Of a stretch of DNA of 64,000 nucleotides, positions 13,145-64,000 are shown one piece after another. The position numbers were made by a program, and so were the translations under genes. The stretch's first letter is position 1, and each line of letters starts with the position of its first letter. The DNA is from Chiloscyllium plagiosum (taxonomy: Eukaryota): the NCBI RefSeq assembly GCF_004010195.1, contig NC_057718.1, forward strand, positions 70,899,790-70,963,789. The letters run 5' to 3'. The notes beneath the pieces are model-generated. The model saw only the letters and a list, made by a program, of their open reading frames with translations, did not search any database and was not told the origin of the DNA.

Positions 13145-13637
13145 CCAACCAACCCAACCACCCTGTGGCTCAACACTTCAACTCCCCCTCCCACTCCACC
13201 AAGGATATGCAGGTCTTTGGATTCCTCCAATCGCCAGACCACAACAACACGACGGTTGGAGGAAGAACGCCTCATCTTCCGCCTAGGAACCCTCCAACAC
13301 AAGGGATGAACTCGGATTTCACCAGTTTCCTCATTTCCCCTCCCCCCACCTTGTCTCAGTCAAATCCATCGAACTCAGCACCGCCTTCCTAACCTGCAAT
13401 CTTCTTCCTGACCTCTCCGCCCCCACCCCAGTCTGACCTATCACCCTCACCTTGACCTCTTTCCACCTATCGCATTTCCGACGCCCCTCCCCCAAGTCCC
13501 TCCTCCCTACCTTTTATCTTTGCCTGCTGGACACACTTTCCTCATTCCTGAAGAAGGGCTTATGCCCGAAACGTCGATTCTTCTGTTCCCTGGATGCTGC
13601 CTGACCTGCTGCGCTTTTCCAGCAACACATTTTCAGC
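13145..13637 (+). mobile_element. Penelope-like (Neptune-type) 3' fragment, tail-less
   Basis: HPVAQHFNSPSH...EERLIFRLGTL GIY-YIG C-terminus plus pLTR. Near-identical to 38527-39020 and ends exactly at CATTTTCAGC. Confidence 0.8.
13544..13579 (+). ncRNA. Minimal type I hammerhead ribozyme motif (PLE family N1)
   Basis: ATTC-CTGAAGA-A-GGGC(TTAT)GCCC-GAAA-CGTC-GATT. Confidence 0.7.
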
Positions 13638-14273
13638 AATGTTAATTCAGACCAAGTTAGTAGGTAGGGTTAGTGAGGCGTTTGCAGCGCTGTCAAATGA
13701 GTATCAAGAGATAATGAAGATGTCAAACAAACTATGTTGAGTGTTTACGAATTGGTACCAGAAGCATACAGACAACAGTTCAGAAACATAAAGAAGGAAC
13801 CAGGTCAGACTTATGTTGAGTTTAGAAGAATCAAACATAGCAACTTCGATAAATGGGTGACAGCATTAAAGATAGAGAAGACATGAAGATTGTACAGAGG
13901 TTATTCTGCTGGAGGTGTTTAAAAACTCACTTCCAGAGATGATAAGAACTCATAGCAGAAAATTCAAATAGCAAGAATAGCTGCAGAAATGGCGGATGAA
14001 TACGCTTTACTGCATAAATCGAAATTTAGCTTCTGACAGCAAGTTGATTCCATGAGAGGTAGAAATTGGCTAAAAGGGAGATCCTTCAAAGAGAAGTAAA
14101 AAAATAGATTGCACTGATAACAGTTTACCATGTGAAAAAAACATGTTTTCACTGCAATAAGGTATGATACACAAGTCACAGTACTGGTAGTTTAAGAAAG
14201 GCACTGGGAAAAAGGATATGGAAAAAAGGCTAAACCAGTGGGATTAGATGAGTTAGTGAAGAAAATTCCAAAA

Positions 14274-15610
14274 GAACATAGAACAATACAGCACAGTACA
14301 GGCCCTTTAGGCCCTCCCCTATACCTTTCTCTAATCACTTTAAAATTATGCCCCCTTGTGACAGCCATTTCTGCCCCGAGGAAAAGCCTCTGGCTATCTA
14401 TTCTATCTATGCCTCTCATTACCTTGTACATCTCTATCAAGTCACCTCTCTTCCTTCTTCTCTTCAGTGCGAAAAGCCCTCGCTCACTCAACATCTCTTC
14501 ATAAAATATTCCCTCCAATCCACGCAGCATCCTGTTAAATCTCTGCACCCTCTCTAAAGCATGTATATATTCCTATAATGAGGTGACCAGAACTGGACAC
14601 AATACTCCAAGTATGGTTTTATAGAGCTGCAGCAAAATCTCGTGGCTCTTAAACTCAATCGCCAAAATACCATACGCCTTCTTAACAACCCTATCAACTT
14701 GGGTGGCAACTTTGAGTGATCTATGTACGTGAACCCGAAGATCCGTGTGTTCCTCCACACTGCCAAGAATCCTGCCTTTAACCCTGTATTCAGCATTCAA
14801 ATTCGACCTTCCAAAATGTATCACTTCGCCTTTATCCAGGTTGAACTCCATCTGCCAGTTCTCAGCCCAGCTCTGCATCTTGTCAATGTCCCATTGCAAC
14901 CTACAGCAGCTCTCCACATTGTCCACAACTCCATCAACCTTCGTGTCATTGACAAACTTACTAACCCACCTTTCCAATTCTTCATCCAGGTAATTTATAA
15001 AAACTACAAAGAGCAGAGGCCCAAGAACAGATCCCTGCAGGACACCACAGTCACCTCTAGGCTGAATACTTTCCATCCGTTACCACTTGCTGTCATCTTT
15101 TGGCCAGCCAATTCTGCACCCAGACTGCCAAACTTTCCCTGTATCCTGAATGAGCCTACCGTGGGAAACCTTAACAAATGCCTTATTGAAATCCACATAC
15201 ACCACATCTACTGCTCGACCTTCATCAACTTGTCTCATCATATCCTCAAAGACCTCAATAAGGCTTGTGAGGTATGACCTGCCCCTCACAAAGCCATCCT
15301 GAATATCTTTAATCAAACTATGCTTTTACAAATAGTCATAAATCTCATCTCTCAGAATCATTTCCAGTCCCTTACTTACCACAGGCGCAAGACTGACTGG
15401 TCTGTAATTCCCAGAAATTTGTCTTCCTTTTTTTGAACAGTGGAACAACATTCGCCTCCCTCCAATCATCCGGTATGACCCCCGTGGAGAGATGAAACAA
15501 TATTGCCAGAGGCGAAGCAATCTCATTCCCTGTTTCTCATAGTAACCTTGGATATATCTGGTCCAGCCCTGGGGTCTTATCTACCTTGATGCTGCCCAGA
15601 ATTTCCAACA
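14274..15610 (-). mobile_element. CR1 LINE RT-3' fragment nested in the Gmr1 element
   Basis: QGSVLGPLLF, DFNKAF and TRGHNFK motifs. Confidence 0.85.
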
Positions 15611-15739
15611 CAAGAAGTTGAGTAACTGCAGGAAACTGAATGGCCTCGTCATAGGCTGGATAAGATGGTGTTCAATCTCGACAAAGACCTCAGCTCTGTG
15701 GGCAAGATTTACTCAAGAAGAACACAGGAGAAGGTAAAG

Positions 15740-16008
15740 AAATTAAAATATTGAGAGATAGCAGAGCTGGTCAGTTTCTAACAGTAAGAGGTGAAAACAT
15801 TTGCACTCCTTCTGAAGTATTATCTGAGAGAGTGTTAATATGCGGAATACATGGGGAGAGATTAAGTGTTCCCCTGTGTAAGATAAGGCTGGAAAGTCAA
15901 ATTAGGACTGAGGAAGTAACAATGGGAGTGATTGAAAGAGTGTCTATTCCAGGAATACAGTTTGTTCTTGGAAACAACCTAGCAGGATCAAGGAGATGTC
16001 CCTTGTAG
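15740..16008 (+). pseudogene. Gmr1-like aspartic protease remnant
   Basis: IKILRDSRA (decayed LRDTGA) ... GIQFVLGNNLAG. Confidence 0.7.
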
Positions 16009-16993
16009 TGGAGAAGCCAAAGGCAAACTGGGGAACTGAGGAGCTAAAAGAAAAATACCCTGGAATTTTTCTGGAATATGTGGTAACAAGATCCCATAGT
16101 CATAGCTTAATGCAATAAGTAAAAAAAAACAGAAAGACGAAGGAGTTGAGGTCCAGTTAGCTGACACCCTGTTTGATGAAATGGGAAAGGAAAAGTCTGA
16201 ACAGGTTAAGGACCAGTCAGAGGTGTTTAATTCTGAAAGATTAATGGAGTTACAACAAAAAGAGACAATAAAAGATTTATATCATAAAACCTATTCGGAA
16301 AAGAAATCAGAACCTATTCCAGAATGTTATTATCGTAAGGACAGAATCCTAAAGTGGCAAGTTAGTGCAGAGGAGAAATGGGCGGATGTGCACCAGATTG
16401 TGTTGACATGCAAAGTTTTGCGAGTAGCAAATGAACTACCTGTGGATCATCTCGGAGTAAGGAAGACTCAGGCTAAGATACAAAAGCATTTTTATTGGCC
16501 TGGATTACATAAGGATGTAGTTGAATTTTGTCATATTGTCATTCATGTCAAATGGTAAAAAGCCACAGGGAGTAATAAAATCAGCACCTTTAATGCCAAT
16601 TCCTGCATTTAAAGAATCCTTCACACAGATTATGATTGATTGTGTAGGTCCCCTCTCTAAACCAAAAGTGGGAACCAACATTTCCTAACCACATTGAATG
16701 TATCTACCAGATTTGCAGAGGCAATTCCATTACGGAATGACAAGGCAAAAAAGGTAGTGGATAAGTTGTTTGCTTTCTTTACCCATTATGCACTACCCAA
16801 GGAGATTCAGTCAGACCAAGGGTCCAACCTTACTGACAAACTATTTAAGGAGGTCACAGATAGTTTAAGCATGCAACACTTTAAATCAAATTCTGAATCC
16901 CAGGGAGGATTGGAAAAGTGGCATCAGACCCCAGATACCACACTAAGGCTTTATTGCCAGAATTACCCAACTGATTGAGAAAAAGGTACCCCT

Positions 16994-17820: not shown

Positions 17821-18079
17821 TTTTAGATTAGATTACTTACAGTGTGGAAACAGGCCTTTCGGCCCAACAAGTCCACACCNNNNNNNNNNNNNNNNNNNNN
17901 NNNNNNNNNNNNNNNNNNNNNNNNNNGACATGCACATTTTTGGACTGTGGGAGGAAACCGGAGCACCCGGAGGAAACCCACGCAGACACGGGGAGAATGT
18001 GCAAACTCCACACAATCAGTCGCCTGGGGCGGGAATTGAACCTGGGTCTCTGGCGCTCGGAGGCAGCAGTGTTAACCAT
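17821..18079 (-). mobile_element. HE1 SINE (contains an N gap)
   Basis: Tail, V-domain and partial head. Confidence 0.85.
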
Positions 18080-18654
18080 GAAACATATTGAAATGAATTG
18101 ACTCCATTTGAGTTGATATTTGGGCATGAAGTAAGAGGGCTTTTAAAATTAATCAAAACAAAGTTGATAGGTCTGAAGTCATAGATCTCAAAATTGGATT
18201 ATGTAGGAGGTGAGAGAAAGATTAAACAGAGTAGGTGAATTAGCTAGACAATATCTGAAGGTGGCACATTATCTCATAAAACAAGAAGCATATGAGAATT
18301 CTAAAATTTGTACATTTACCCATGGGAATAAAGTATCAGTGCTGTTATCAGTAGTAAAGTTTAGTGGTACCTATCAGATTGAGAAGAAGTTAAGTCAGGT
18401 TGATGATCTGATAAAGACGCAGATCAGAAAAAAAATCATCAGGTATATTATTTGAATATACTGAAAACTTACTATGACAGGGACAGGGAACTGGAGAAAC
18501 AGGTATTATTAGTTCCTGCCCCTCAGAGTGATGCGCCTCATAATAAATTAAATAATGAGGAAGCCCTTCAAGAATGGGATAGGTTAGTGAGTTCTCTGTC
18601 TCAGGATCAGAGAAATGAATTTAAAGGCTTGTTGCAGCAATATGAGGACATACA

Positions 18655-19797
18655 CCATACCAATCTGAAGCCCATGTAACCTACAATATTCCATGTACGC
18701 CCATATGTTTGTCCAATGACGACTTGTATGCACTTAAAGTTGGTGAATCTACTACCGTTGCAGGCAAAGCATTCCATACCCTTACTACTCTCTGAGTTAT
18801 CTAACCCTCTGATTATCTTATATGTCTCTATTAAGTCACCTCTCAACCTTCTTCTCTCCAACGAAAACAGCCTCAAGTCCCTCAGCCTTTCCTCGTAAGA
18901 TCTTCCCTCCATACCAGGCAACATCCTGGTAAATCTCCTCTGCACCCTTTCCAAAGCTTCCACATCCTTCTTATAATGTGGTGACCAGAATTGTACACAA
19001 TGCTCCAAGTGCGGCAGCACCAGAGTTTTGTACAGCTGTAGCATAACCTCATGGTTCCGGAACTCGATCCCTCTATTAATAAAAGTTAAAACAATGTACG
19101 CCTTCTTAACAACCCTGTCAACCTGGGTGGCAACTTTCAAGGATCTGTGTACATGGACACCGAGATCTCTCTGCTCATCTACACTACCAAGAATCTTACC
19201 ATTAGCCCAGTACTTTGCATTCCGGTTACTCCGGCCAAAGTGAATCACCTCACACTTGTCCGCATTAAACTCCATTTGCCACCTCTCAGCCCAGCTCTGC
19301 AGTTTATCTATGTCTCTCTGTAACCTACAACATCCTTCGTCACTATCCACAATTCCACCGACCTTAGTGTCGTCTGCGAATTTACTAACCCACCCTTCTA
19401 CGCCCTCATCCAGGTCATTTATAAAAATGACGAACAGCAGTGGACCCAACACCAACCCTTGCTGTACACCACTAGTAACTAGACTCCAGGATGAACATTT
19501 CCCATCATACTCTACATTTTACTATCATTCATGTGGCTACCACCACCTTCTGTCTTCTTTCAGCAAGCCAATTACTGATCCAAACTGCTACATCTCCCAT
19601 ATCCCATTCCTCCACATTTTGTACAATAGCCTTATCAAACGCTTTGCTGAAATCCATATACATCACATCAACCGGTTTACTCTCATCTACCTGTTTGGTC
19701 ACCTTCTCAAAGAACTCAATAAGGTTTGTGAGGCACGACCTAACCTTCACAAAACCGTGCTGACTATCCCTAATCAAATAATTCTTTTCTAGATGAT
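18655..19797 (-). mobile_element. Relatively young CR1 LINE RT-3' fragment
   Basis: Long open RT frame within ORF 18607-19455 containing LGPLLF and FADD. Confidence 0.9.
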
Positions 19798-19869
19798 ATG
19801 GAATGAGATACAGTGGAAGTGATTCAGGTGCGTACATTAACACCATTTAAAAGACATTAAACAAATAAT

Positions 19870-20349: not shown

Positions 20350-21524
20350 GATATCACTGAGCCGGGTCAAAGTGAGTAGAGTTCGCTGATCATGTTGATT
20401 CCCAAACCTGATGGTACTCAAACAAATCTGCGTGGATTATTAGAAGATCAATGCCGTAACCAAATTCGACTCATACCCAATTCCATGACTGGAGGACTGT
20501 GTAGAAAAGGTTGGACAAGCCACTTACATCACAAAGTTGGACGTATCTTATGGTTACTCTTTGTTGGAGAGAGCTAACAAAGTTTCTGCATTTGTAACCC
20601 CAAATGGGCTATTATCGATTTAAGTAATGCCCTTTGGAATGAAGAACATACCAGCCACATTTGAAAGATTTATGAACAGAGTTGTGGCAAGATTGACTAA
20701 TTGTACCATCTATATGGATGACTTAGTAATCTTTAACCATTCATGGAAAGATCACATGGTGCATTTGGCAGAGCTCTTTGAAAGATTACATAAGGCAAAT
20801 GTGGTTATAAATTTAGCAAAAATTTGCGAAGGCAGAAGTGACGTTCTTGGGACACAACATTGGACATGAAAGGATGACTCTGAGGAATGTGAAGACGAAG
20901 GCCATCGAGGAATTTCCAAGACCATCCTCAAACAAAAAGATTTTTGAAACTGAGCGGATTTGACCATAACTTTGTTCCAAACTTTAGTAGTACAGTGGCA
21001 CTGCTGACACATTTGCTAAAAAAAAACACAAAGTTTCAGTGGATAGAACAATGTCAGAGGCATTTGAGAATTTAAAAGCCATGTTAACCACCATACTAGC
21101 TTCAGCTATACTAAATTTCTTGAAATTTAGTTACAATAATTGAAATTTAGTTGAAAGTTGCAATCGATGCAAGCGATGTAGGGTTGGAGCTATGTTGATG
21201 CAGGAGGGTGATTTAGAATTGAAAGGTCAAATTGGTTATTTTTTAAAAAAAAACCTCAATATCCATCAGAGAAAATATTCCACCATTGAAAAAGAATTAT
21301 TGTGTTTGGTACTAGTGTTACAACATTTTAATGTTTATGTTACGAACAAAACACCAGAGATAGTTGTATATACTGACCACAACCCTCTGACCTTTTTGGA
21401 AAGATTTAAGGACAAGAATATGAGACTATTTTGTTGGAGTTTTATGTTAGAAGCATTTAATTTACAAAGTGGACATGTTGCATTTCATAAAAACATTATT
21501 GCAGATGCGTTATCACGGGTTTAA
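20350..21524 (+). pseudogene. Gmr1-like reverse transcriptase + RNase H remnant
   Basis: LIPKPDG, MPFGMKN and YMDD (RT); DAS, YSTIEKELL, VYTDHNPL and NIIADALSR (gypsy RNase H). Confidence 0.85.
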
Positions 21525-23165: not shown

Positions 23166-23166
23166 T

Positions 23167-23418
23167 TTTTAGATTAGATTACTTTACAGTGTGGAAACAG
23201 GCCCTTCGGCCCAACAAGTCCACACCGACCCGCCGAAGCGCAAACCACCCATACCCCTACATTTACCCCTTACCTAAGGCTACGGACAATTTAACATGGC
23301 CAATTCACCTAACCTGCACATCTTTGGACTGTGGGAGGAAACCGGAGCACCCGGAGGAAACCCACGCAGACACGGGGAGAATGTGCAAACTCCACACAGT
23401 CAGTCGCCTGAGGCGGGA
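23167..23418 (-). mobile_element. HE1 SINE running into an assembly gap
   Basis: Tail and V-domain; N run from 23419. Confidence 0.85.
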
Positions 23419-24800: not shown

Positions 24801-26759
24801 CTTCAGAGATTTACCAGGATGTTGCCTGCCTGGAATGTTTCAAGTTGGAACAGAGATAGGACAGACTGAGATTGATTTCCTTAGAGCAGAGGAGATTGCA
24901 AGAGGGCATGATTGAGACGTATGAAGTTATAAAGGCTATACATAGGGTAAACAGGAAGGAACCTTGATAGAGCGATATGTGACGAGGGCATAGATTTAAG
25001 GTGGGGGCAGAAGGTTTAGGGGAGATGTGAAGAAAACTTTTTTCACCCAGAGTGTGGGGGGTTCCTAGAATTCAATTTTGTGTAGGGATAATAGCAGAAA
25101 CCACCAGAATATCGTGAAGTTAATTGAGAAGTGCAATTGAGATTTTGGAGAATAATTTTAGCTCAGGTTGCCTGTTTGCTCATTGAGTTGGTGGGTTTGT
25201 TTTCAGATGTTTCGTCATCATGCTAGGTAACATTATCAGTGAGCCTCTGGTGAAGCATTGGTGTTCTGTCCTGCTTGCTATTTATGTGTCTGTTGTGGTG
25301 GGTGGTATCATTTCCAGTTCTGTTTCAGAGGTTGACAAATTGGGTCCAAATCTGAGAGTTCTGCTTTGAATGCCATGCCTCTAAGAATTTGTTGGCCTAG
25401 TCGAACTGGTGTCCGCTTTCATCTGTGTGTATCGATACCAGTGATAGTTGATCATGTCTTTTGGTGGTTAGTTGGTGCTCCTGTATTCTGGTGGCTAGTT
25501 TCCTGCTGGTTTGTCCAATGTAATGTTTGTTGCAGTCCTTGCAGGGTATTTTGTATATTATCTTTGTTCTGCTGGCTGTGGGTACGGGGTCCTCTAAATT
25601 CATCAGCAGTTGTTTTAGTATGGTAATACGTTTGTGGGCTACCATGATGCCCAGGGGCTGGAGTAGTCTGATGCTCATTTCTGGTAGGGTGTCTAAGTCT
25701 CTGGGCATGTTATGTCTTCCTGTTTAGGTCTATTGTGCAGCAATCAGTGGACTGTGCTTATCGGGTAACTATTGCTCCTGAATACATTGTGTAGGTGTTT
25801 CTCCTCAGCTTCTCATAGTTCTGGGGTGCTACAGTCCATTGTGACTCATTTAACTATTGTCCTGATGCAGCTCCAATTGGGGTGTTGGGATGGTTGTTTG
25901 TGTAGATGAGTATCTGGTCAGTGTGTGTGGCTTTCCTGTAAATGCTGGTCTACAGTTCTCCATTGGCCTTTCATTCTACTGTGACATCCAAGAAGACGCG
26001 TCAGCTATCATTCTCTTCCTCTTTGGTGAACTTTACACCGGAAAGGGTGTTGTTCATGTATTTGTAGGTTTCTTCTAGTTTGTTGCATTTCGTGATGATG
26101 AAGGTGACATCCACATAGCTGACCCAAAGTTTAGGCTAGAAGGTGGGAAGGCCTGTTCATTCTAACTTGTGCATAACTGCTTCTGCAAAAAGTCTTGATA
26201 TTGGTAATCCCATTGGCATCCGGTTGATTTGTTTGTATATTTTGTCGTTTGAAGATGAAGTGATTGTGAGGCACAGGTCTAGTAGTTTAAGGATGCTGTC
26301 ATTGCTGATGGAGTTGGCATTGTCAGGTGTTTGTATCCCTGGTTTGTCTAGCAGTGAGACCAATATTTCTTTGGTTAGGGTAATGTTTATTGATGTGAAT
26401 GGGGCCATCACATCGAAGGAGACCATGACCTTGTCATCCTCTACCTTGAGGTCTTTGATTGATGTTAAGGAATTCCTGGGTAGAGTGGGTTGAGTGGGTT
26501 GAGTCTTCTACCAGGTGTTTTGGTTTACATTACAGTTTCTTTGCTAGCCTGTATGTCGGTGTGCCAGGAAGTGTGACTATGGGTCTGAGGGGGAACCCTT
26601 GCATGTGTACCTTTGGCAATCCATACGAACGGTTGGACCCTTTTTGTTTCATTCTTTGGAGATTGATCTTGTGTAATTTCCTTAAGGAAGCTGTGATGTG
26701 GTTTTCTAGATATGGAGTCTGCTCCATTACCACTGGTTGGTAGATGCTGGTATCAAAGA

Positions 26760-31208: not shown

Positions 31209-31388
31209 GAGAAAGTGAGAACCACAGATACTGGAGATGTCAAGAGTCGAGAAAGGTGGTGCTGAAAAAGGATCTGAGGAGCAGGAGAGTCGACGTTTCA
31301 GGTATGAAGGGTTTATGCTCAAAATGTTGACTCTTCTGCTCCTCGGATGTTATCTGACCTGCTGCGCTTTCCACACCACCTTTTTGTT
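31209..31388 (-). mobile_element. Degenerate fold-back micro-PLE
   Basis: Tail plus inverted arms, with TSD CACCAAAAGACATG (31195-31208 / 31389-31402). Confidence 0.75.
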
Positions 31389-31413
31389 CACCAAAAGACA
31401 TGATCAAATATCA

Positions 31414-34400
31414 CAAACAGCAGAGGCAAATCACCTATCCAGTGTATTCAAAAAGAACAGGTACCCAATGAACACAGTCAGCCAATTTCTCAGCAACAAA
31501 CCCAAACAAGCAGACCAAACATATCCAGAAACCCTAGCCACTCTCACCTACATCAAAGACATCCCGAAAATTACTGCCAGACTACTCAGACCCTTTGGCA
31601 TCACGGTGGCCCACAAACTCACCAACACACTAAAACAGCAGCTAATGAACTTGAAAGATCCCATACAGACAACAAGCAAAACTTATGTCATCTACAAAAT
31701 ACCTTGCAAGAACTGTAGCAAACATTACATTGGAAAAGCAGGCAGAAAATTAGCCACCAGGATACATGAACATCAACTAGCCACAAAAAGACATGACCCA
31801 CTCTCACTGGTATCCTTACATATGGATGGGGAAGGTCACCACTTCGACTGAGACAACACATCCATCCCAGGACAAGCCAAGCAGAGACGCGCACGAGAAT
31901 TCCTAGAGGCATGGCATTCTAAACGGAACTCTATCAACAAACACATTGACTTGGATCCGATTTACCACCCCCTGAGGAAACGAACAGGAAATGACATCAC
32001 TATAGGAAACCCCATCACCACAGGAAATGACATCACCGCTCCAAGGAAACCCAAACATATAAATAGAAAGCAGGCTATACCACCAGTGCTTCATCCGGAG
32101 GCTCACTGAAAATGTTACCTAGAATGGTAATGCCAAAAGTATCCGAAATAAGGTAGGTGAGCTTGCAGCATGGATAGGTACCTGGCACTTTGATGTTGTG
32201 GCCATTTCGAAGACATGAATAAAGCAGGGTGAGGAATGGATGTTGCAGGTTCCAGGGTTTAGGTCTTTCAGTAAAAACTGGCAAGGCGGTAAAGGGGGGG
32301 AGGCATGGCCTTGTTAGTCAAAGATAGTATAAAGTTGGCTGAGAGAACTTTTGATGAGGACTCGTCTACTGAGGTAATATGGGCTGAGGTTAGAAACAGA
32401 AGAGAGGTCACACTTCTTGGAGTTTTTTTATAGGCCTCCGCAGAGTTCCAAGGAGACGGAAGAAAGGATTAGCAACATTATTCTGGGTAGGAGTGAAAGG
32501 AACAGGGTGGTCATTATGGGGGACTTTAACTTTCCCAACATTGATTGGAAATGTTATAGCTCTAGTACGTCGGATGGATCAGTTTTTGTCCAATGTGTAC
32601 AGGAGGGTTCCCTGACACAGTATGTCAAAGGGCCAATAAGAGGGGAGGGCACATTGGATCTGGTGCTTTGTAATGAACCAGGCCAGGTGTTTGATTTAGT
32701 CGTAGGTGAGCATTTTGGAGAGAGTGACCATAATTCAGTTACGTTTAGTTTAGCGATGGAAAGGGATAGGTACATGCCACAGCTCAAGAGTTATCGATGG
32801 GGCAAGGGCAATTATAATGCAATTAGGCAAGAATTAGGATGCATAGAATGGGGTTGCAAAATGCAGGGGATGTAGACAATCGAAATGTGGAGCTGGTTTA
32901 AGGAATAGATATTGCGTGTCCTTGATAGGAATGTCCCTTTCAGGCAGGGAGTAAGTGATAAGGTAAGCAAACCGTGGTTTACTACTGTAATTGCATCTCT
33001 CATTAAGAAGACGAAAGAGGCTTGTGTTGATGAGGCAAGATGGTACAGATGAGGCGATGGAGAGTTACAGATCAGCTAGGAAGGATTTAAAGGAAACCCA
33101 CGCAGATATGGGAAGAACGTGCAAACTCCACACAGACAGTTTTTAGATTAGATTAGATTAGATTACTTACAGTGTGGAAACAGGCCCTTCGGCCCAACAA
33201 GTCCACACCGACCCGCCGAAGCGTAACCCACCCAGACCCATTCCCCTACATTTACCCCTTGAGTGTGGACCCTGTAGAAATCAGAGAGGTGCTAAATGAA
33301 CATTTCCCATTGGTGTTGACTCAGGAAAAGGAGAATGTTGTACAGGAGAAGAATGAGGTATGAGATATTAGACTAGAAAGGATTGACGTTAGTTATGCAC
33401 AATTCTAGGAGTGAAAGTAGACAAGTCCCTTGGGCCGGATGGGTTTTATCCGAGGATTCTCTGGGAAACTAGGGAGGAGATAGCAGAGCCTTAGGCCTCG
33501 ATATTTGAGTCTTCATTGTCTACAGGTTAAGTACCTGAGGACTGGAGGATTGCAAATGTTGTGCCCTTGTTCAAGAAGGGCAGCAGAGATGACCCAGATA
33601 ATTATAGACCAGTGAGCCTTACTTCTGTTGAAGGAAAGGTTTTGGAAAGGATTATGAGAGATAAGATTTATAATCTTCTAGCAAGCAACAATTTGATTTC
33701 AGATAGTCAACATGGTTTCGTCAAGGGCAGGTTGTGTCTCACAAACCTCATTGAATTTTTTGAGAAGGTGACCAAGCATGTAGATGAGGGTAGGGCAGTT
33801 GACGTGGTATACTTGGACTTCAGTAAAGCCTTTGATAAGGTTCCACATGATAGGCTGATGGAGAAAATGCAGAGGGATGGATTTGAGGGTGATTTAGCAG
33901 TTTGGATTAGGAACTGGCTTTCTGGAAGAAGGCAGCGAGTGGTGGTTGATGGAAAATATCCAGTCTGGAGTCCAGTTACTAGTGGTGTGCCACAAGAATC
34001 TGTTTTGGGACCACTGTTGTTTATCATTTTTAAAAATGACTTAGACGCAGGCATAGGTGGATGGATTAGTAAATTTGCAGACGACACTAAAGTTGGTGGA
34101 GTAGTGGACAGTTTGGAAGAATGTTACAGGTTATGGGGGACTTGGATAAACTGCAGAATTGGGCTGAGTGGTGGCAAATGGAGTTCAATGCGGCTAAATG
34201 TGAGGTGATGCACTTTGGGAAGAATAACATGTCAATGGAAAGATTCTTGTTAGTGTGGATGTGCAGAGGGATCTTGGAGTCCATGTGCATAGATCCCTGA
34301 AAGTTGCCACCCAGGTGGATAGTGCTGTTAAGAAGACATATGATGTGTCAGGTAAAGGAACTGAGTTCCGGAACCGCAATATCATGCTGCAACTATACAA

Positions 34401-35002: not shown

Positions 35003-35489
35003 AACTGTCACTGGTATCCATACACACAGATTAAGAAGGACACCAGTTCGACTGGGACAATTCATCCATCCTGGGATAGGCCAAACAAAGACATAGAAAT
35101 TCCTCGAGGTGTGGCATTCAACCTGGAACTCCAGTAACAAACACATAGGTTGGTAAATAGGGTCCAAATCTATCAGAAACAGAACCGAAAATGATACCAC
35201 CCACCACAACACATAAACAACAAGTGGGACAGAACACCAGCGCTTCACCAGAGGCTCACTGATGATGTTATCTCGTATGGTGACAAAATGTCTGAAAACA
35301 AACCCACCAGCTCAGCAAACAAACAATCAACCAGATATGCACTTCTGATACCAAGGCACGGAGGATTTGGACAAAGCGCTGAGAAATGGGATCATTAGTT
35401 AGATGGTTATTTTTTACAGGCGTGGAAGCAATGGGGCAAAGGTTTTTTAATGCTGCAGGTCTATGTCCCCAAGAATCTTCCTTCTGCAA

Positions 35490-38150: not shown

Positions 38151-38402
38151 CTTTATATTCCCAGTTTAGTCGTTGAACTTAAATTCCACCAACTACCTTG
38201 TTTGAATTTGAACCCATGTCAACAGAACACTAGCCTGGGCCTACGAATACTAGTCCAGCTGCATTTACATCTGTGCCCCCAACTCCCTGTGCCATGATGC
38301 CCATCACCATACCGAGTGACACAGATGTGATAAGCACAAATTAACTTTATTAGACAGCAATACATCGCAGAGGTAACTCCAATAAATGGTACAAGCAAAT
38401 AA

Positions 38403-39056
38403 GATTCACCTGCACCTCCACACACATCATCTATTGCATCCTCTGCACCCGATGTGGTCTCCTCTATATTGGGGAGACAGGCCGCCTACTTGCGGAGCGT
38501 TTCAGAGAACACCTCTGGGACACCCGGACCAACCAACCCAACCACCCTGTGGCTCAACATTTCAACTCCCCCTCCCACTCCACCAAGATATGCAGGTCTT
38601 TGGACTCCTCCATCGCCAAACCACAACAAAACGACGGTTGGAGGAAGAACGCCTCATCTTCCGCCTAGGAACCCTCCAACCACAAGGGATGAACTCGGAT
38701 TTCACCAGTTTCCTCATTTCCCCTCCCCCCAGCCTGTCTCAGTCAAATCCATCAAATTCAGCACCGCCTCCCTAACCTGCAAACTTCTTCCCGACCTCTC
38801 CGCCCCCACCCCAATCTGTCCTATCACCCTCACCTTGACCTTTTTCCACCTATCACATTTCCGACGCCCCTCCCCCAAGTCCCTCCTCCCTACCTTTTAT
38901 CTTAGCCTGCTGGACAAACTTTCCTCATTCCTGAAGAAGGGCTTATGCCCGAAACGTCGATTCTCCTGTTCCCTGGATGCTGCCTGACCTGCTGCGCTTT
39001 TCCAGGAACACATTTTCAGCTCTGATTACCAGCACCTGCAGACCTCACTTTCTCCG
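38403..39056 (+). mobile_element. 5'-truncated Neptune-type PLE (GIY-YIG + pLTR + tail)
   Basis: FTCTSTHIIYCILCTRCGLLYIGETGRLLAERFREH; TSD CAAGCAAATAA (38392-38402 / 39057-39067). Confidence 0.88.
38927..38962 (+). ncRNA. Minimal hammerhead ribozyme motif (family N1)
   Basis: CTGAAGA-A-GGGCTTATGCCC-GAAACGTC. Confidence 0.7.
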
Positions 39057-42320: not shown

Positions 42321-42632
42321 TTTGTGGTAGAACAACCAGGGGTTTGCAGGAAAAAGCCAGTGATCAGACAGCAGGATGTCTGCAGCAGCCTCAAGGAATT
42401 CCTTCGAATCTGGGAAGCCCGGGGAAAGACATCAGCCAAAGGTAAATCTCTCTCCTTCACTCCATTGTTATATTGCATATTCAAAGCAGTCATAGGTGGT
42501 GAATACATTGTAGGGAAAGTTAAAGCCCACTGTGTGACTGCCACCCAGAAAATAAACTGGCTAGGGAAGGAGTGTGTACTGGGATGACATGGTACAAGGT
42601 ACAGTCAGACAGAAGAGATAGCCAATGTTGAA

Positions 42633-42985
42633 ATGATTAGATTACTTTTAGATTAGATTAGATTAGATTAGATTAGATTAGATTACTTTACAGTGTGGAA
42701 ACAGGCCCTTCGGCCCAACAAGTCCACACCGACCCGCCGAAGCGCAAACCACCCATACCCCTACATTTACCCCTTACCTAACACTACGGGCAATTTAGCA
42801 TGGCCAATTCACCTAACCTGCACATCTTTGGACTGTGGGAGGAAACCGAAGCACCCGGAGGAAACCCACACAGACACGGGGAGAACGTGCAAACTCCACA
42901 CAGTCAGTCGCCTGAGGCGGGAATTGAACCCGGGTCTCTGGCGCTGTGAGGCAGCAGTGCTAACCACTGTGCCACTGTACCACCC
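42633..42985 (-). mobile_element. HE1 SINE with expanded (AGATT)n tail
   Basis: Full-length copy. Confidence 0.88.
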
Positions 42986-45094: not shown

Positions 45095-46560
45095 CCTTCA
45101 GGGCTCTCCACTTCTTCCTGCAGCAAAGGTCTAAACTATCCCCATCCACCACCACCGTGTTCCACTTGACCAAGTTCATTCTTACCCTCAACAACTACTC
45201 TTTTAACTCCACTTGTTCTCTTCAGATCAGAAGGGTAGCCATGGGCACCCATGTTATTTCAGAGTGGTGTTGAAAAAGCACAGTAGGTCAGGCAGCATCC
45301 GAGGAGCAGGAAAATCAACGTTTCGAGCAAAAGCCCTTCATCAGGACCCGAAACATTGATTTTCCTGCTCCTCGGATGCTGCCTGACCTGCTGTGCTTTT
45401 CCAGCAACACTCTGATCTAAACTCTGGTTCCAGCATCTGTAGTCCTCACTTTTGCCGAGGCTCCAGTTATGCCTATTTCTCCATGGGGTACATTCCTTGT
45501 TCTAGTCCTATTCTGGCTACCTCCTTCTCCAGTATATTGATAATATAATTGGTGCTACTTCCCTTTCTCGTTTGGAATTGGAAAAGTTCATTGGTTGCGC
45601 TTCCAATTTTCACCCCACCCGCACTTTCACCTAGTCTATCTCTGACTCCTCCCTTCCCTTCCTTGATATCTCTGTTTCCATTTCTGGGAATAAACTGACC
45701 ACTAACATTCACTATAAACCCACTGTCTCCCACAAAAAATTCTGGACTATGCACCCTTGCACCCTGTTTCTTTTAAAGACGCCATGTCATTCTCCCAGTT
45801 CCTCCGCCTCCATCACAAATGTTTTGATGAGGTCAACTTTGTCAAGGGAGCCTCCGAAATGTCCACCTCTTCAATCAAGGATTCTTCAGCACCATTGTCA
45901 ATAGGGCCCTCAACTGCATCCGGCCCATATCCAGTGCTTCTGCCCTCACGCCCTCTCTTCCTTCCTACTACAATGACAGGGTTCCCCTTGGCCTTACCTA
46001 CTAGACCATCAGCATCCTCATCCAGAAGATCATCAGCTGCCATTTCCACCACCTCCAGTGAGATGCCACCACCAGACACAAATTCTGCTCCCCTCTCTTG
46101 TTTGCCTTCTGCAGGGACTGTTCCTTCCAGGACATGCTGATCCACTCTTCTTTCACTTCCAACTCTCTCCCATAGCTCCATGGCACCTTGCAATGCAACC
46201 ACCAAAGGTGTAGCACCTGCCCATTTACCTCCCACCTCCCCAGTATCCAAGAGCCCAAACATACCTTCCAGGTGAAGCAGACTTTATCTGCACTTCTCAC
46301 AATCTAGTCTATTGCATTCGTTGTTCATAATGTGGTCGCCTGGGTGACCACTTCACAGAACATCTAAATTCTGCCCGCAAAAATGATCCTGAGCTTTTAA
46401 TTGCCTGCAACTTTAACACACCATTCTGTTCCCTCGCCATCATCTCTGCCTCAGGCTTGCTGCAATGCTCCAGTGAAGCTCAGTATAAACTGGAAGAACA
46501 ACACATTTCCATTTGGGGATTCTGCAGCCCTCTTGGACTCAATATTGAGTTTAATAATTT
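45095..46560 (+). mobile_element. Neptune-type PLE RT-GIY-YIG fossil (3' pLTR probably resumes at ~48190-48490)
   Basis: QIRRVAMGT, YIDN (for YIDD), LPFLDISV, FSQFLRL, Cys-rich linker RCSTCP, and NLVYCIRC. Confidence 0.75.
45259..45456. mobile_element. Fold-back micro-PLE (family N2) inserted in the PLE RT motif
   Basis: Inverted arms plus a ~40-nt tail. Hammerhead on the minus strand at 45313-45346 (CTGATGA-A-GGGCTTTTGCTC-GAAACGTT). Confidence 0.75.
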
Positions 46561-46623
46561 TTGTACCTAATCTCTGCCTTGTCCCAGACCCCCACCACAC
46601 ATGCCAGGCCATACTATAAGATG

Positions 46624-48150: not shown

Positions 48151-48934
48151 ACAGCCAAATCATATTGACAAATACATGTTTTAGGAGAATGATCTGTAGT
48201 CAGCCATTACACATTACCTATTGTTAGCCACTAACAGTCTCCATTAATATCTATTCATCCTCCCAGCCAGATGGTTATCAACTCCTTTGTCTGTCCAGCT
48301 GTTCTTCTTTGTCTTTGGGCTCTATTCCTACTTATCGTTAATTCCCTACACCCTCCCCCACCCTATCGTCTGCAATATAAACTGGCAATTCCTAGGTATC
48401 ATCAGTTCTGAGGAAGGGTCATTAACTTTGATTCTCTTCACAGATGCTACCAGACCTGCTGAGCTTTTCCAGCAACTTCTGTTTTTGTTTCTTATTATTC
48501 TGTTAAGTTTTCTTATTGTTTAAATAGATACAACAACTATTACTATTTAACCATTCCAATTTAGTAACATCCCATAAACACACCTCTTGGCAGAAAGGCA
48601 AATTCAAACACTGATTCTCATATGCAGTTTTCTAATCCAGGAGGAAAAAGCATCAAGGGAAAACTCAGACAGAGTAGCAGCACGAGACATTCATTGAAGC
48701 TTCTTTTGAGACCCCAATAACTTCTGCTTAAATCTAAAACTAAAAACAAAGACAACTAGGAAGCCTGGTCTGTAAGAGCTGGCCACAACCAGTGTCCCAA
48801 CTTCAAATAAAAACCCTAAGGCATCACAAGTTGTTTACTTTCTTAGAGATACCTCATCACCTCTGCCTCACCACCTCACTTAAACAGGACAAAATAACCT
48901 CTTGAAAGCCACTTAATTGTCACACAGTACCCCG

Positions 48935-51116: not shown

Positions 51117-51373
51117 GTTGAAACTTTATTGCTGGAACAGCACAGCAGGTCAGGCAGCATCCAGGGAACAGGAGATTCGACGTTTCGGGCACAGGCCCTT
51201 CTTCAGGAATGAGCAGAGAGTCCTGAAGAGACCTCTCTGCTCATTCCTGAAGAAGGGCCTGTGCCCGAAACGTCGAATCTCCTGTTCCCTGGATGCTGCC
51301 TGACCTGCTGTGCTGTTCCAGCAATAAAGTTTCAACTTTGATCTCCAGCATCTGCAGACCTCACTTTCTCCTC
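51117..51373. mobile_element. 257-bp perfect fold-back micro-PLE with two hammerhead motifs
   Basis: 104-bp perfect inverted arms (51117-51220 / 51233-51336), 37-nt tail, TSD TAAGGTTACCTATT (51103-51116 / 51374-51387). Confidence 0.92.
51243..51278 (+). ncRNA. Minimal hammerhead ribozyme motif (mirror copy on the minus strand at 51175-51210)
   Basis: ATTC-CTGAAGA-A-GGGC(CTGT)GCCC-GAAA-CGTC-GAAT, with stem I fully paired. Confidence 0.78.
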
Positions 51374-54420: not shown

Positions 54421-54611
54421 AAATGACTTTATGGATGGGGTTCCATGTGTATGTGAGCAGAAATCCGTGTAGTGGCGGTTGAACAAATGTGAACAAGAGA
54501 AAGGTAGAAAGCAATGGAAAATAGGAAACGTTTCAACCCCAGGTAGTAGAACTAGTGGCACTAAAGGAAGACATATGTGCCACAGAAGAGAGAAGGGCTA
54601 ACATTTATACA

Positions 54612-54701
54612 TCCCTGATGAAGGGCTTTTGCCTGAAACGTTGATTTACCTGCTCCTCGGATGCTGCCTGACCTGCTGTGCTTTTCCAGCACCACTCTAA
54701 T
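54612..54701 (+). mobile_element. 90-bp tail-less PLE insertion starting at a hammerhead
   Basis: TSD CTAACATTTATACA (54598-54611 / 54702-54715); CTGATGA-A-GGGCTTTTGCCT-GAAACGTT. Confidence 0.8.
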
Positions 54702-56741
54702 CTAACATTTATACAGGCAGTAGGTCTGCCTTTGGGATAGTACGTGATTACACAGTAGCATGGAGCTAGGGGGGTACATCGCTTCAAAAGGATGGCATAG
54801 ACAACATGAGACAGTAAGTAAGGAATTAATAGATACTGCTAGACTACCACTAGTAGCAGCAGTGGTAAAGGTTAAAGGATGTCAGAAGAAAACTGAACCT
54901 ATTCAATAGGGTAATCAATGGACAGATGAAGCAGCTAAGAAAGCAGCTACAATAGGCCTTGAGCATCAGGTTGTAGCAGTATCAATTGGGCTAGGGGGAA
55001 TAAATATAGTAGATTTGCACCAGGATATGAAAGAGGATGAGTAAAGACAGTGGGAAGAACAAGAGTCAGTAAAAGGTGTCATTGGCATTTGTTGAAAAGC
55101 AGAAAGGGTTGCATCACTATGCTGCATTCAGCATGACCTAATGAAAATGCACCTTGGAAATGCACACCATGGAGGGAAACTATGTTGGGGAAGATAGACA
55201 TTTGCTGGTGATGGCATGGAACAGGAAGAGACATAGCAAAACACTCAGAAATACCTGGTATGTGCCCAACATAACCCAGGAAGACCAGTCAAGTGAGTTC
55301 CAGATTCCTACCTTCTGGGTGAAAATGTATTTTCTCACATACCCTCTAAACCTCCAGCCCCTTACCTTAAATCTATGGCCCGATCATTGAACCTTCCAAG
55401 GAGAATAGTTTCATATAAGGAAAACAACCCCAGTTTTGCCATTCTCTCTTATCTGAACAGCATACGTCTTCAGTCCAGGCAACATCATGGTAAATCTTCT
55501 CTGCATGTGCGATTACATCCTTCCTATAATGGAAGATTCAAGAGCAGTACTCTAGTTGTAGCCTAAATAATGTTTTCATGCATCACCTTGCACTTATCAG
55601 AATTGAATTCATTTGCCACTGATTAGCCCATCTGCCTGGCCCATCTTATCCTCCTGTAGCCTAAGGCTATCCTCCTTGGTATTTACCAGCCCACCAATTT
55701 TGGTGTCATCCACAAATGTACTGACAAACCCTCATGCATTCAAGTCTAAATTGTTTATATATATATATATATACCATAAACAGCAAGGACCCCAATACTT
55801 ATCCCTGCAGCATGCCAGGATGCAGGCTTCCAGTTACAAAACACCCCTCGACCATCATCATCTACTTTCTGCTACCCAGTCAATTCTGTAACCAATTTGC
55901 CAAACTTCCTTGGATCCCATGGGCTCTTACCTTTGCTATCAGTCTTCCATGCAGAACTTCATCAAAATCTTACTGAAGTCCAAGTAGACCAAATTGAATG
56001 CATTGCCATCTTTACCAACCTGCTTACCTCTGAAAAATTTTAATCAAGTCCATTAAGTGTGACTGCCTGTTAACAAAATGATGCTGACTGTTCTTGAATA
56101 ATCACTGGCTCTCCAAGTGCAGATTAATTCTGTCCCTCATTTAGAATCTTATCTTTGTCCTCTGGCTCCATGCACAAATTACTACCATGGTGCTTAATGG
56201 AACCTACTTTTTCTTAGTTTTGCTTTTGATTAGATTCCCTACAGGGTGGTAACAGGCCCTTTGGTCCAACCAGTCCACACCGACCCTCCAAAGAGCAACC
56301 CACCCAGACCCATTTCCCTCTGACTAATGCACCTAACACTATAGACAATTTAGCATGGCCAATTTACCTGACCTGCACATCTTTGGACTTTTATCCCTAA
56401 TGTATTTAGATCTTTCCCTTATTTTACTTATCATTATTCTTTCATGCCCCTATTATGTTCTCTTGATTTACTGATTTTCTTCTTAAGTTTCCCCTTGCAT
56501 GTTCTGTACTCCTCACGGTGTTCTGCTGTTTTGAGCCCTCATCTACCATAGGTTTCCCTTTTTCTTTTTATCCAATATTGTATATCCCTTGATATCCAAG
56601 GTTCACAGGATGTGATTGTCTTTATTGGAACACGTTGGCCTTATACTCTCTATGTTTCTTTCTTGAATGCGTCTCACTGTTCTGACACAATACACTTAAT
56701 GGTATTGGCTACATCCAAATCATACTTGATCTTATTAAAGT

Positions 56742-56832
56742 TAAAAATCACACAACACCAGGTTATAGTCCAACAGGTTTAATTGGAAGCACACTAGCTT
56801 TCGGAGCGACGCTCCTTCATCAGGTGATAGTC
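56742..56832 (-). mobile_element. ~90-bp tail-less PLE (family A) insertion
   Basis: TSD GATCTTATTAAAGT (56728-56741 / 56833-56846). Confidence 0.82.
56792..56826 (-). ncRNA. Minimal hammerhead ribozyme motif (family A)
   Basis: Minus strand: CAC-CTGATGA-A-GGAGC(GTC)GCTCC-GAAA-GCTA-GTG. Confidence 0.78.
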
Positions 56833-58174
56833 GATCTTATTAAAGTCAGCCTTCCCTCAGTTTAGAACTTTGATTTTAGATCCATTCTTGTCCTTTTCCA
56901 TGACAATCTTGAATGGAGCTATGATCTCTGATGTGTAAAATTGTCCCACATTGATAGTTTAGCCACTTTTCCAGCTTTGCTATCTAAAGTTAAGTCCAGA
57001 ATTGCTTCCTTTCTTGTAGTCGTAGCGTCATAGAGACATACAGCATAGAAACAGAACCTTCAGTCCAACTTGTCTATGCCGACCAGACATCCTAAAAAGA
57101 TGAATTCCCAATTGCAAGCATTTGGCCCATATCCCTCTTAACCCTTCCTATTCGTATACCCATGCAAATGCCTTTTAAATGGTGTAATTGTACCAGCCTC
57201 CACCACTTCCACTGGCAGCTCATTCCATACAAGTACCACCCTTTGTGTGCAAACATTGCCCCTTAGGTCCCTTTTAAATCCTTCTCCTCTCACCTTAAAC
57301 TAATGCCTTCAAGAATCACAGAATCCCTACTGTGTGGAAGCAGGCCATTCAGCGCATCGCGTCCACACTGACCCTCTGAGGAGCATCTCACCTAAACCCA
57401 TCCCCTGATCCTATCCCTGCATTTCCCATGACTAATGCCCCTAGCTTGTACACCCATGGACACTATGGGTAATTTTGCATGTCAAACCCACCTAACCTAC
57501 ACATCATTGGACTGTGGGAGGAAACCCACACAGTCACAGAGAGAATATGCAAACTCCACACGGACAGTTGCCCGAGGCTGGAATTGAACCTGGGTCCCTA
57601 TGAGGCAGCAGTGCTAACCACTGAGCCACCGTGCTGTCTCATCTAGTTTTGGACTCCCCCACCTTGGGGAGAAGATCTTGTCTATTTACCTTATCCATGC
57701 CCCTCATGATTTAAAAAAACCTATATAAGTTCACCCCTCAGCCTCCTATGCTCTAGGGAAAATAGCCCCAGTGTATTCAGCCTTTCCCTCTAGCTCAAAC
57801 CCTCCAAGCCTGGCAACATCCTTGTAAATCTTTTTCGGATCCTTTCAACTTTCACAACATCCTTTCTATAGCAGGGAGACCATAATTGCACACAGTATTC
57901 CAACTGCCTAACAATATCCTATAAAGCTAAGACATGACGTCCCAACTCCTAGACTCAACACACTGATCAACAAAAGCAAGCATACCAAACATCATCTTCA
58001 CTGTCTTATCTACCTGTGACTCCACTTTCAAGGTCTCTTTGTTCAGCAATACTCCCCAGGACCTTGCCATTAAGTGTTTAAGACCTCTGCTGATTTGCCT
58101 TTCCAAGATGCAACATCTCACTTTTATCTATCATATTTGTCACAAATACCTTCCAACATTTTTGACAACACTAC

Positions 58175-60640: not shown

Positions 60641-60759
60641 GTTAAAAATCACACACACCAGGTTATAGTCCAACAGGTTTAATTGGAACCACACTAGGTT
60701 TCAGAGCGCCACTCCTTCATCAGGTGAACTTTCTACACCCTAGTCCAACACCAGCAAAT
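60641..60759. mobile_element. Family A micro-PLE: inverted body plus forward tail only
   Basis: Imperfect TSD CTATGACTCTAGTT / CTACGACTCAAGTT. The tail resembles 10158-10195. Confidence 0.7.
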
Positions 60760-62097: not shown

Positions 62098-62510
62098 TTT
62101 AAGAAGATTTGTAGCTCAGATTGAGGTTCTTGATGTAGGTTTGCTCGCTGAGCTGGAAGATTTGTTTTCAGTCATTTCATCACCATAATAAGTAACATCT
62201 TCAGTGAGCCTCCGAAGGAAGCACTGGTGGTGTGGCCCATGTTCTACTTATATGTTTGAGTTTCCTAGGGTTGATGATGTCATTTCATTTGGTGACATCA
62301 TTCCATATGGTGATGTCATTTCTGGTTCTTTTTCTCAGAGGGTGCTAATTAAGATCAAACTCAATGTGTTTGTTGATAGAGTTCCAGTTGGAATACCATG
62401 GGGGCTATACTACCAGTGCTTCATTTGGAGGCTCACTGAAGATGTTACCTAGTATGGTGATGAAATGTCTGAAAACGAACCTTCCAGCTCAGCAAGCAAA
62501 CCTATATCCA
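62098..62510. mobile_element. Fold-back Poseidon-type PLE
   Basis: Inverted pLTR arms, ~32-nt tail, TSD GATCCAGAAGAAT (62085-62097 / 62511-62523). Confidence 0.8.
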
Positions 62511-63429
62511 GATCCAGAAGAATCTTTGGAAAATCCACGTAATCTAAATTAAAACAGTCCCACAAAAGTTAATAGGTTATTATATTTAGAGAGGAAATGT
62601 ATCAGATTATATTATTTTTCTGTATTTTGTTCATCGTTACCAATTATGTTTTTAAAACTGCAGTAAACTAACCTACTTGAAGAAGCAAATAATTATTATG
62701 CTTGAAGAATTTATTAATATCAAACTGAATAATGTGGATTAATTTTCCACGAAGTTCAGATCTTTGAGTTAAATGTCGCAAGACTGCTGCAACAATACGT
62801 TTCCCAGAGGCAAACAATTGGCCATCTACATGTTCACTATCCAGTTAAGAACGGCACGAAATTTCTCTGCCAAACCCGTACAGGAAAGGGATGGTGGCAA
62901 AAGACTCAACAACCCTATTTGGAGATTGAAGAACGAAAGGGTGTGTCAAAGTAGGGTGCCGTTAAGATGTTGAAAAATGTACACAAAAAAAAAAATCAAA
63001 TAGTCGAAGGTCAGAGACAATTGGAGCGATGGGCAAATACCCCCGAGTGGATCATTTTAGCCATGAATATACAGTTCCCTGTATGCAGTCCCACCCAACA
63101 ATTTGCAGTCTGGGTCGCCTCCATTGAATACATTCCTCAGGTGGCAGTAAAATCTTTCCTATTTGGGGTCTTGGTCGCTTAAGTGTGAGGAAATTCTCAG
63201 GCTGTCCTGGAAAAGTTGATTGATGGCAGGAATGTGTTGCGTTGTCCCGATGCTGCTTTATTTCCCTTGATAATTGGTGTCAGAATTAAAGTGCAGGCGT
63301 TGAAAGACCCCAAAATCCTGGCCATCACGTTTAGTGGATTTTACCAGATGGACAAAGACCATCACCTGTAGCGTTCAATTCCACTGTACAATGGATAATT
63401 TAAGACTGACTCATTTCTTGAAATACAGA

Positions 63430-64000
63430 TTTCAGATATGGTTCTGTTCGCCGAGCTGGAAGTTTTTGTTGCAAACGTTTCGTCCACTGTCTAGGTGACA
63501 TCCTCAGTGCTTGGGAGCCTCCTGTGAAGCGCTTCTGTGGTGTTTCCTCCGGCATTTATAGTGGCCTGTCCCTGCCGCTTCCGGTTGTCAGTTTCAGCTG
63601 TCCGCTGTAGTGGCCGGTATATTGGGCCCAGGTCGATGTGTTTGTTGATGGAGTTTGTGGATGAATGCCATGCCTCTAGGAATTCCCTGGCTGTTCTCTG
63701 TCTGGCTTGCCAGGGAATTCCTAGAAGCATGGCACTCATCCACAAACTCCATCAACAAACAAATCGACCTGGACCCAATATACCGGCCACTACAGCGGAA
63801 CCTGAAACTGACAACCGGAAGCGGCAGGGACAGGCCACTATAAAGGCTGGAGGAAACACCACAGAAGCGCTTCACAGAAGGCTCCCAAGCACTGAGGATG
63901 TCACCTAAACAGGGGANNNNNNNNNNNNNNNNNNNNNNNNGCGAATACCTTGTATAGGTGTTCCTCTTCCTCTTTTTGCCGTTCTGGTGTGCTGCAGTGT
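63430..64000. mobile_element. Young Poseidon-type PLE, fold-back, running into a gap
   Basis: AREFLEAWHSSTNSINK is encoded on both strands. Arms at ~63490-63690 and 63709-63915. Confidence 0.85.
63471..63510 (-). ncRNA. Minimal hammerhead ribozyme motif (Poseidon family)
   Basis: Minus strand: GCA-CTGAGGA-T-GTC(ACCTAGACAGTG)GAC-GAAA-CGTT-TGC. Confidence 0.75.

Follow-up and report, generated by a model that had tools for sequence, protein, structure and literature searches.

Minimal hammerhead motifs in three Penelope-like lineages of a shark genome, with Neptune-type copies that begin at the motif

We consider it likely that the window studied here, a stretch of 64,000 nt from Chiloscyllium plagiosum (contig NC_057718.1, positions 70,899,790 to 70,963,789, forward strand), carries minimal type I hammerhead ribozymes (min-HHRs) in the terminal repeats (pseudo-long terminal repeats, pLTRs) of three lineages of Penelope-like elements (PLEs), namely the Neptune-type lineage N and family A and a Poseidon-type lineage with subfamilies P1 and P2. 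Copies of both Neptune-type lineages are mostly stubs of ~95–135 nt whose 5′ ends lie 4–8 nt before the catalytic core and not at the cut site, and these stubs likely record the run-off of reverse transcriptase (RT) at an uncut, probably capped 5′ end. Judged by their sequence, the motifs are the min-HHRs of Cervera and de la Peña (2014; PMC4209133), a class already known and one that a specialist would expect in any fish PLE. What is added here is a host group apparently unlisted for min-HHRs, the number of copies, and a fixed 5′ end marked by a G.

Results

Where the copies begin and end

N copies were detected by their tail (the part 3′ of the cut, with an identity of at least 88%) and traced upstream, and 14 out of 221 were dropped for a gap at the boundary. 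Counted from the predicted scissile bond, the 5′ ends of the remaining 207 lay beyond −60 in 34 copies, at −60 to −37 in 9, at −36 to −29 in 69, at −28 to −4 in 68, at −3 to +2 in 11 and further down in 16. Among the 112 copies that reach −29 or beyond, 69 end within −36 to −29 and 9 in the next 24 nt; three sets of loci, taken one by one, each show the peak (44/126, 11/28 and 14/53). Likewise, 19 of 30 loci of family A2 start at −42 to −21, with the peak at −37/−38, and 8 extend at least 100 nt. In N the start falls on the A of TCATTCC, a match to the initiator consensus, and the base before it is G in 2,926 cases and A in 1,413, against 21% G and 30% A in a genome sample. Eleven of the first 30 loci with this G have unique flanks, and 8 of the 11 show target duplications of 7–12 nt, two of them resembling one duplicated locus. 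At their other end, Neptune-type copies stop at one of two tail positions; the lengths of the G-stubs cluster at about 92–107 and 126–134 nt, matching the two internal RT starts reported for an Anolis Poseidon element (PMC11167929).

The possibility that the pile-up marks a splice acceptor, raised by the intron of D. virilis Penelope, which ends at helix I (PMC4209133), was rejected: the family sequence holds no AG there, and the unique-flank stubs share no upstream exon.

Penelope-like carriers of the motif

Each lineage has the motif just 3′ of a Penelope-like open reading frame (ORF) for RT and a GIY-YIG endonuclease (EN), two of these being Neptune-type and one Poseidon-type, which bears out the Penelope identity that an earlier note on this DNA had proposed for the carriers. 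Lineage N offers frames of 893 and 749 aa, both with RT and GIY-YIG domains. The longer one, at a locus elsewhere in the genome (L129), ends 160 nt before an N1b motif, has a DKG motif and a CX4CxxC linker, and matches RVT_1 at E=6e-8 and GIY-YIG at E=3.5e-4, the latter below the cut-off; its start is a fourfold repeat of ~39 residues, possibly an assembly artefact. Upstream of family A, where the C-terminal part of the ORF alone was seen, in broken frames, there is a second C-terminus of that type, with CX4CxxC and 24–33% identity to N (linker CHGNHCKMC, against CNRRRCNTC in the N protein P0001). RT and GIY-YIG were both seen in broken Poseidon-type copies, and the GIY-YIG domain that precedes P1 and P2 has no zinc-finger linker (translations of loci L139 and L141). 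The linker zinc finger is used as a clade diagnostic in PMC8557442, and by it N and A are classed as Neptune- or Nematis-type and P as Penelope/Poseidon-type. Within the window, ORF remnants lie 5′ of the motifs at 13544, 38927, 25203 and 63471 and of P2 copies. The copies also show traits of EN+ PLEs, being 5′-truncated and inverted and having an optional tail of 30–40 nt. A search for the junction between 5′ repeat and ORF brought up nothing that copies have in common past the tail.

Motifs in the window

All 16 hammerhead motifs listed in the earlier note are present at the sites given there, which are leftmost positions irrespective of strand; nine are on the minus strand (41489, 51175, 45313, 56792, 1376, 60692, 63471, 25203 and 62168). 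A strict core pattern, CTGANGANG-N8-20-CGAAA(CG/GC)TH, gave 8 matches in the window, whereas 200 first-order Markov simulations gave none (mean 0.0, maximum 0). The seven copies that had been called decayed do have changes in the core, the palindrome or G10.1-C11.1. The proposed division into four families needs revision: N1 and N2 are 83–91% identical across motif and tail and therefore form one lineage, which leaves three independent lineages, and the Poseidon family comprises two subfamilies, P1 (63471) and P2 (the four decayed sites). An older N3 subfamily is present as well, and broken or partial copies missing from the first list lie at ~9450–9485, 29150–29230, 31306, 32103, 45347, 48400 and 63889. 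A scan of the window with Rfam returned no match to hammerhead families even at E≤10. The features are as follows.

Strict matches, C3 positions: 13548+, 38931+, 51247+, 41520−, 45344−, 51206−, 56823−, 63507−
13544..13579, plus: N1a min-HHR, core intact, predicted cut between 13575 and 13576; lies at the end of a Neptune-type 3′ fragment of ~490 nt, 13145–13637
38927..38962, plus: N1a min-HHR, core intact, predicted cut between 38958 and 38959
38369..38742, plus: broken GIY-YIG C-terminal remnant 5′ of the 38927 motif, 65–78% identity to the Neptune-type protein P0001
41489..41524, minus: N1a min-HHR, core intact; the copy enters an assembly gap at 41694
51175..51210, minus: N1b min-HHR, stem I ATTC:GAAT; forms a head-to-head inverted pair with 51243, of which it is the left half
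51243..51278, plus: N1b min-HHR, right half of the inverted pair with 51175; long tail
45313..45348, minus: N2 min-HHR stub, one G-U in stem II; head-to-head with a truncated inverted copy, 45347–45420
54611..54646, plus: N2 stub beginning at the motif; C11.1>T, stem I mismatch
48400..48480, plus: older N3 subfamily stub, internal deletion in the motif
56792..56826, minus: family A (A2) min-HHR, AGCT palindrome, core intact; the stub begins slightly upstream of the motif
60692..60726, minus: family A stub, broken palindrome (GAAACCTA)
1376..1409, minus: family A copy, C3 and GAAA broken
9722..9755, plus: family A copy, core and palindrome broken
~9450–9485, minus: second broken family A copy near 9722
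63471..63510, minus: P1 (Poseidon-type) min-HHR, core intact; left arm of the inverted pair 63483–63916; GIY-YIG C-terminal remnant 63536–63742
63889..63916, plus: P1 partner copy, cut by an assembly gap at 63917
25203..25242, minus: P2 motif, G8 broken; 3′ of a broken RT and GIY-YIG ORF, 25292–26760
35256..35295, plus: P2 motif, G12 broken
62168..62207, minus: P2 motif, U16.1 broken; inverted pair with 62433
62433..62472, plus: P2 motif, CpG-type decay (palindrome TG, C11.1>T)
31369..32140, plus: Poseidon-type GIY-YIG remnant (Pfam PF01541, E=0.0026, below the curated cut-off), then a broken truncated P2 motif at ~32103

The N2 inverted pair, 45259–45415, was apparently inserted into an older broken Neptune-type RT/EN fragment (45097–46561, plus strand, 33–51% identity to P0001).

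Stems, palindrome and conservation

Pairing was examined in 10 hand-picked representatives of the subfamilies. Stem I is paired in 28 of 30 cells, against 14.3 with the 3′ arms shuffled, and stem II in 30 of 30, against 19.4, its first pair being G-C in all 10; the stems thus covary between lineages, as had been claimed. When only the four deep lineages are taken, 12 of 12 cells are paired, a value equalled by 1 of 24 permutations. Because the representatives are related and were selected for the motif, these figures describe the set and are less a measure of probability. Both unpaired cells are the U-U mismatch at pair 3 of stem I in the commonest subfamilies, N1a and N2; the stem I ATTC:GAAT that had been given for N1 holds for the N1b pair 51175/51243 only, N1a (13544, 38927 and 41489) and N2 having ATTC:GATT. 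An unpaired base follows the core and precedes stem II with its G10.1-C11.1, as in min-HHRs, and the proposed replacement of helix III by a palindrome at 15.2/16.2 is seen in 9 of the 10 representatives. In 85 sampled stretches the centre of the palindrome is CG in 33 copies, GC in 7, TG in 12, CA in 9 and other in 6. The ACGT palindrome of N and P holds a CpG and has turned into TG or CA in 21 of these copies, against 33 intact; the AGCT palindrome of family A has no CpG.

Conservation was measured at non-CpG cells in copies picked by their upstream flank alone, with 7 variable flank columns set aside. The expected excess conservation of the core over its flanks was found in N, where 8 of 330 core cells (2.4%) are changed against 103 of 1,782 in the flanks (5.8%; p=0.01), and not in family A (31/320 against 152/1,856; p=0.38). 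Core and palindrome are both intact in 21 of 33 N copies and 6 of 32 A copies. Such a pattern is consistent with selection that acts on active lineages and with decay of copies once inserted.

Compatibility of copies as dimers

Small PLE hammerheads cleave as dimers (Lünse, Weinberg and Breaker, RNA Biol 14:1499, cited in PMC6765202), and the same dimer-only cleavage is predicted for the present ones.

A double hammerhead consists of two copies held together by the palindrome, and each stem I in it is built from the 5′ arm of one copy and the 3′ arm of its partner. Since stem I forms in trans and its first pair is mismatched at both sites in N with P1 and in N with P2, heterodimers between N and Poseidon copies should fail, and cross-family dimers through the shared ACGU, which the earlier note had thought possible, were rejected. 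Its companion claim, that the AGCT family should not pair with the ACGT families, agrees with the predicted failure of N with A at the palindrome. N1a, N1b and N2 are mutually compatible, and P1 is compatible with P2 for two pairs. Within 5 kb of the 57 intact cores in our sampled stretches, a partner of the same family was found on the same strand for 8 and on the opposite strand for 19, counts restricted by the 10-kb length of the stretches; most copies would therefore be partnerless in cis.

Number of copies and RNA reads

A search of 3.56 Gb in 101,977 contigs by sequence pattern alone, irrespective of stem pairing, returned 164,239 intact cores, 132,716 with the ACGT pattern and 31,523 with the AGCT pattern, a count that assembly duplicates may inflate; reversed-pattern controls gave 63 matches (54 and 9). 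The 57 intact cores in 1.10 Mb of sampled stretches are consistent with it. The count is ~18 times the largest figure of the 2014 survey, where ~4,000 in coelacanth and ~9,000 in Xenopus were called remarkable (PMC4209133), though those were obtained with a structure-aware descriptor and ours with a looser sequence pattern, so that the two are not strictly comparable. The genome is thus among the richest for the min-HHR motif, of which Rfam detected none in the window. That it holds a very large set of self-cleaving motifs, as had been suggested, stands as to copy number; "self-cleaving" is overstated, because the copies are mostly isolated or head-to-head, decaying, and give no cleavage signal in their ends or in RNA reads.

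The RNA data, ill suited to 5′ ends, come from a single-cell poly(A) run on this species or a relative; a further run, X20, contributed no reads. An N1a copy drew 1,507 reads on both strands, with depth rising at the start of the stub and unrelated flanks beyond it; these reads show that stubs are read through in host transcripts and are silent on cleavage. Between 38938 and 38987 of the window, A>G differences in this material (run X19) are 2–10 times commoner in one read orientation, also at As of the core (28/459 against 2/335 at 38952, 47/468 against 10/338 at 38954, 89/420 against 14/280 at 38945), whereas CpG-type changes have no significant orientation bias and one A>G site (38914) is likewise unbiased. 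The bias resembles that of A-to-I editing, here in head-to-head pairs and with the GAAA of the core among its targets.

Other repeats in the window

A ~310-nt repeat, probably a short interspersed element, occurs in at least 10 copies that are 68–97% alike, and three assembly gaps begin inside or beside it. Inspection by eye also revealed broken fragments resembling a Gypsy-type long terminal repeat retrotransposon (15664–16558 and 21144–21524; integrase zinc-binding, RNase H-like) and many of CR1/L2-like long interspersed element reverse transcriptases (14382–15587, 18607–19797, 27070–28331, 33411–34785 and 39330–40238). Copies of the ~310-nt repeat are at:

3539–3836, 11899–12217, 17927–18078, 23166–23418, 42012–42321
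42673–42984, 47317–47630, 53840–54126, 56218–56389, 57320–57642

Discussion

A mechanism that could generate the stubs is proposed here. Transcription of Neptune-type elements would start at the A of the initiator-like motif in the 5′ arm of stem I, 32 nt (N) or ~37 nt (A2) upstream of the scissile bond. Reverse transcription would prime internally, at ~60 or ~100 nt 3′ of the cut, as it does in vitro for the Anolis Poseidon element. Priming in the 5′ repeat would run off the capped end and leave stubs of 95–135 nt, priming in the 3′ repeat would give ordinary 5′-truncated copies, and fold-back or second-strand priming would give head-to-head pairs. The junction G would then be a copied cap that pairs with a G of the target; an added G at full-length 5′ ends of L1 and SVA has been ascribed to cap copying (PMC3287187). 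The natural dimer of an active element would consist of the 5′ and 3′ repeat copies of one transcript, probably assisted by protein, and cleavage of these paired copies would remove both cap and priming tail. Cleavage may be a side or regulatory step and not the source of most templates, and the dispersed stubs would be decaying passengers. The Anolis carolinensis Poseidon element PAc behaves in a similar manner (Frangieh et al. 2024; PMC11167929): its RT primes at two internal sites 3′ of a pLTR hammerhead, which define an optional tail, copies mainly from uncut RNA and extends both strands of the target; its hammerhead cleavage is protein-assisted and dispensable for insertion, and no RNA-seq ends lie at the cut site. 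That study concerns one Poseidon element in vitro, whereas the present data are genomic copies of Neptune type, with the 5′ end fixed at the motif.

Several observations weigh against this explanation. In the 38 loci inspected, a complete pLTR-ORF-pLTR tandem did not occur and every long copy was 5′-truncated or entered a gap, so that the 5′ repeat of an active element is unseen. In P1, where by eye 26 of 30 copies extend at least 78 nt upstream, the starts do not pile up at the motif, and the capped-end model is therefore not general. The RNA reads on the N1a copy show no pile-up of starts or ends. Genomic counts point the same way as the traced ends, 16,912 of 18,012 exact N1a 36-mers (94%) retaining the next 4 nt downstream and 8,971 (50%) the next 4 upstream, though subfamily differences upstream can inflate that loss. 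The junction G lies inside the target duplication in 7 of 8 stubs and is thus shared with the target, not strictly untemplated, and 19 of the first 30 G loci are inverted. As for the ribozyme, two separate monomers and the cofold minimum were both more stable than the double hammerhead in each of the 5 homodimers computed (for N1a, −16.4 and −24.1 kcal/mol, respectively, against −10.5). In no computed pairing, homodimers included, was the active fold the minimum, in line with the low or protein-assisted activity that has been published. Lastly, N and A each have a short self-complementary stretch that coincides in part with the pile-up site, and fold-back alone could produce the peak.

The main rival builds on this last point: cDNA of a long template would fold back or stall where the first bases of the core form part of a short palindrome (TTC-CT-GAA in N, ATCA-CC-TGAT in A), and the pile-up would mark no RNA end. 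The palindrome is present in both lineages with a pile-up, and P1 lacks the one and the other; the peak bin holds 45 copies, 26 of them inverted, and a short fold-back junction recurs at −31. On the other hand, the remaining 19 of these 45 are not inverted, the unique-flank stubs have clean target duplications, and G is twice as frequent as A at the junction. Moreover, the sharpest A2 peak (−37/−38) lies upstream of the palindrome, and 3 of 4 copies at −37 are preceded by G. All in all, we judge fold-back to be an unlikely source of the peak.

It is also improbable, in our opinion, that the hammerheads cut routinely in vivo, with 5′ and 3′ copies releasing a unit-length RNA that is circularised as the main template (the 2014 model) and dispersed copies cutting host transcripts. 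Such cutting would agree with the retention of core and stems between lineages and with the better-kept core of N, and a religated circle could likewise account for long copies in which the motif is intact. Four of the 207 N copies do begin exactly at the cut, yet this does not exceed the 2.7 per nt at −28 to −4, a comparison of low power, and no read ends at the cut site. Stubs that start at −32 are impossible from cut RNA, a same-strand partner is rare, as counted above, and the activities described in PMC4209133 and PMC11167929 are low or protein-dependent. Finally, it seems highly doubtful that catalysis is vestigial and that the motif owes its retention mainly to a role as promoter element or protein-binding fold: its place at the inferred transcription start, the internal promoter with an RGACGTGY element in D. 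virilis Penelope (PMC2377424), the U-U mismatch in stem I of the most successful subfamily and the spread of Naiad elements without canonical hammerheads (PMC8557442) favour it, but catalytic positions, NUH, G10.1-C11.1, palindrome and stems are kept or covary in three lineages, beyond what a DNA element needs.

Returning to run-off at a capped end, a more far-reaching form of this proposal is that Neptune-type PLEs start transcription at the first bases of the hammerhead, whose 5′ arm would thus bear the cap, that RT starts inside the 5′ repeat yield ribozyme-only stubs in mass, more than 100,000 of which record a capped, uncut template, that cleavage is a switch which takes away the 5′ cap and the 3′ priming tail and so limits transposition instead of enabling it, and that family-specific stem I and palindrome prevent cross-cutting. 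We would give this wider proposal an even chance.

How do these motifs relate to known systems? Min-HHRs, mostly as single motifs, are described in the pLTRs of metazoan PLEs, including Xena, Poseidon and Neptune of fish (PMC4209133), and share with the present ones CUGANGAH, an unpaired base before stem II, G10.1-C11.1, GAAA, a palindromic 15.2/16.2 (CG or GC), NUH and a short stem I. The AGCT palindrome is not new, because GAAA-GC-U motifs occur in the supplement of that paper (turtle). Cartilaginous fish do not appear in the part of its supplement that was searched, and the sections of the paper available to us do not describe the pile-up of copy starts. Animal non-LTR retrozymes (bioRxiv 10.64898/2026.07.22.740005) also carry type I hammerheads from PLE pLTRs, and the study includes one chondrichthyan genome, which was positive. 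Retrozymes form tandem arrays; no tandem array of hammerhead-bearing units exists within the window, and a retrozyme reading of its motifs was rejected. Elsewhere, at locus L050, two same-strand P1 motifs lie 372 nt apart (9226 and 9598), near the mean unit of 363 bp for chondrichthyan retrozymes. Among the papers listed by our literature search, none was on shark PLE hammerheads, though Lünse et al., Repbase/Dfam or the bioRxiv and 2014 supplements may already list shark motifs, and none on point by title or abstract that connects PLE hammerheads with a transcription start. The fixed 5′ ends of Neptune-type copies suggest a precise transcription start and uncut templates, and offer a testable handle on the role of the hammerhead in Penelope-like elements.

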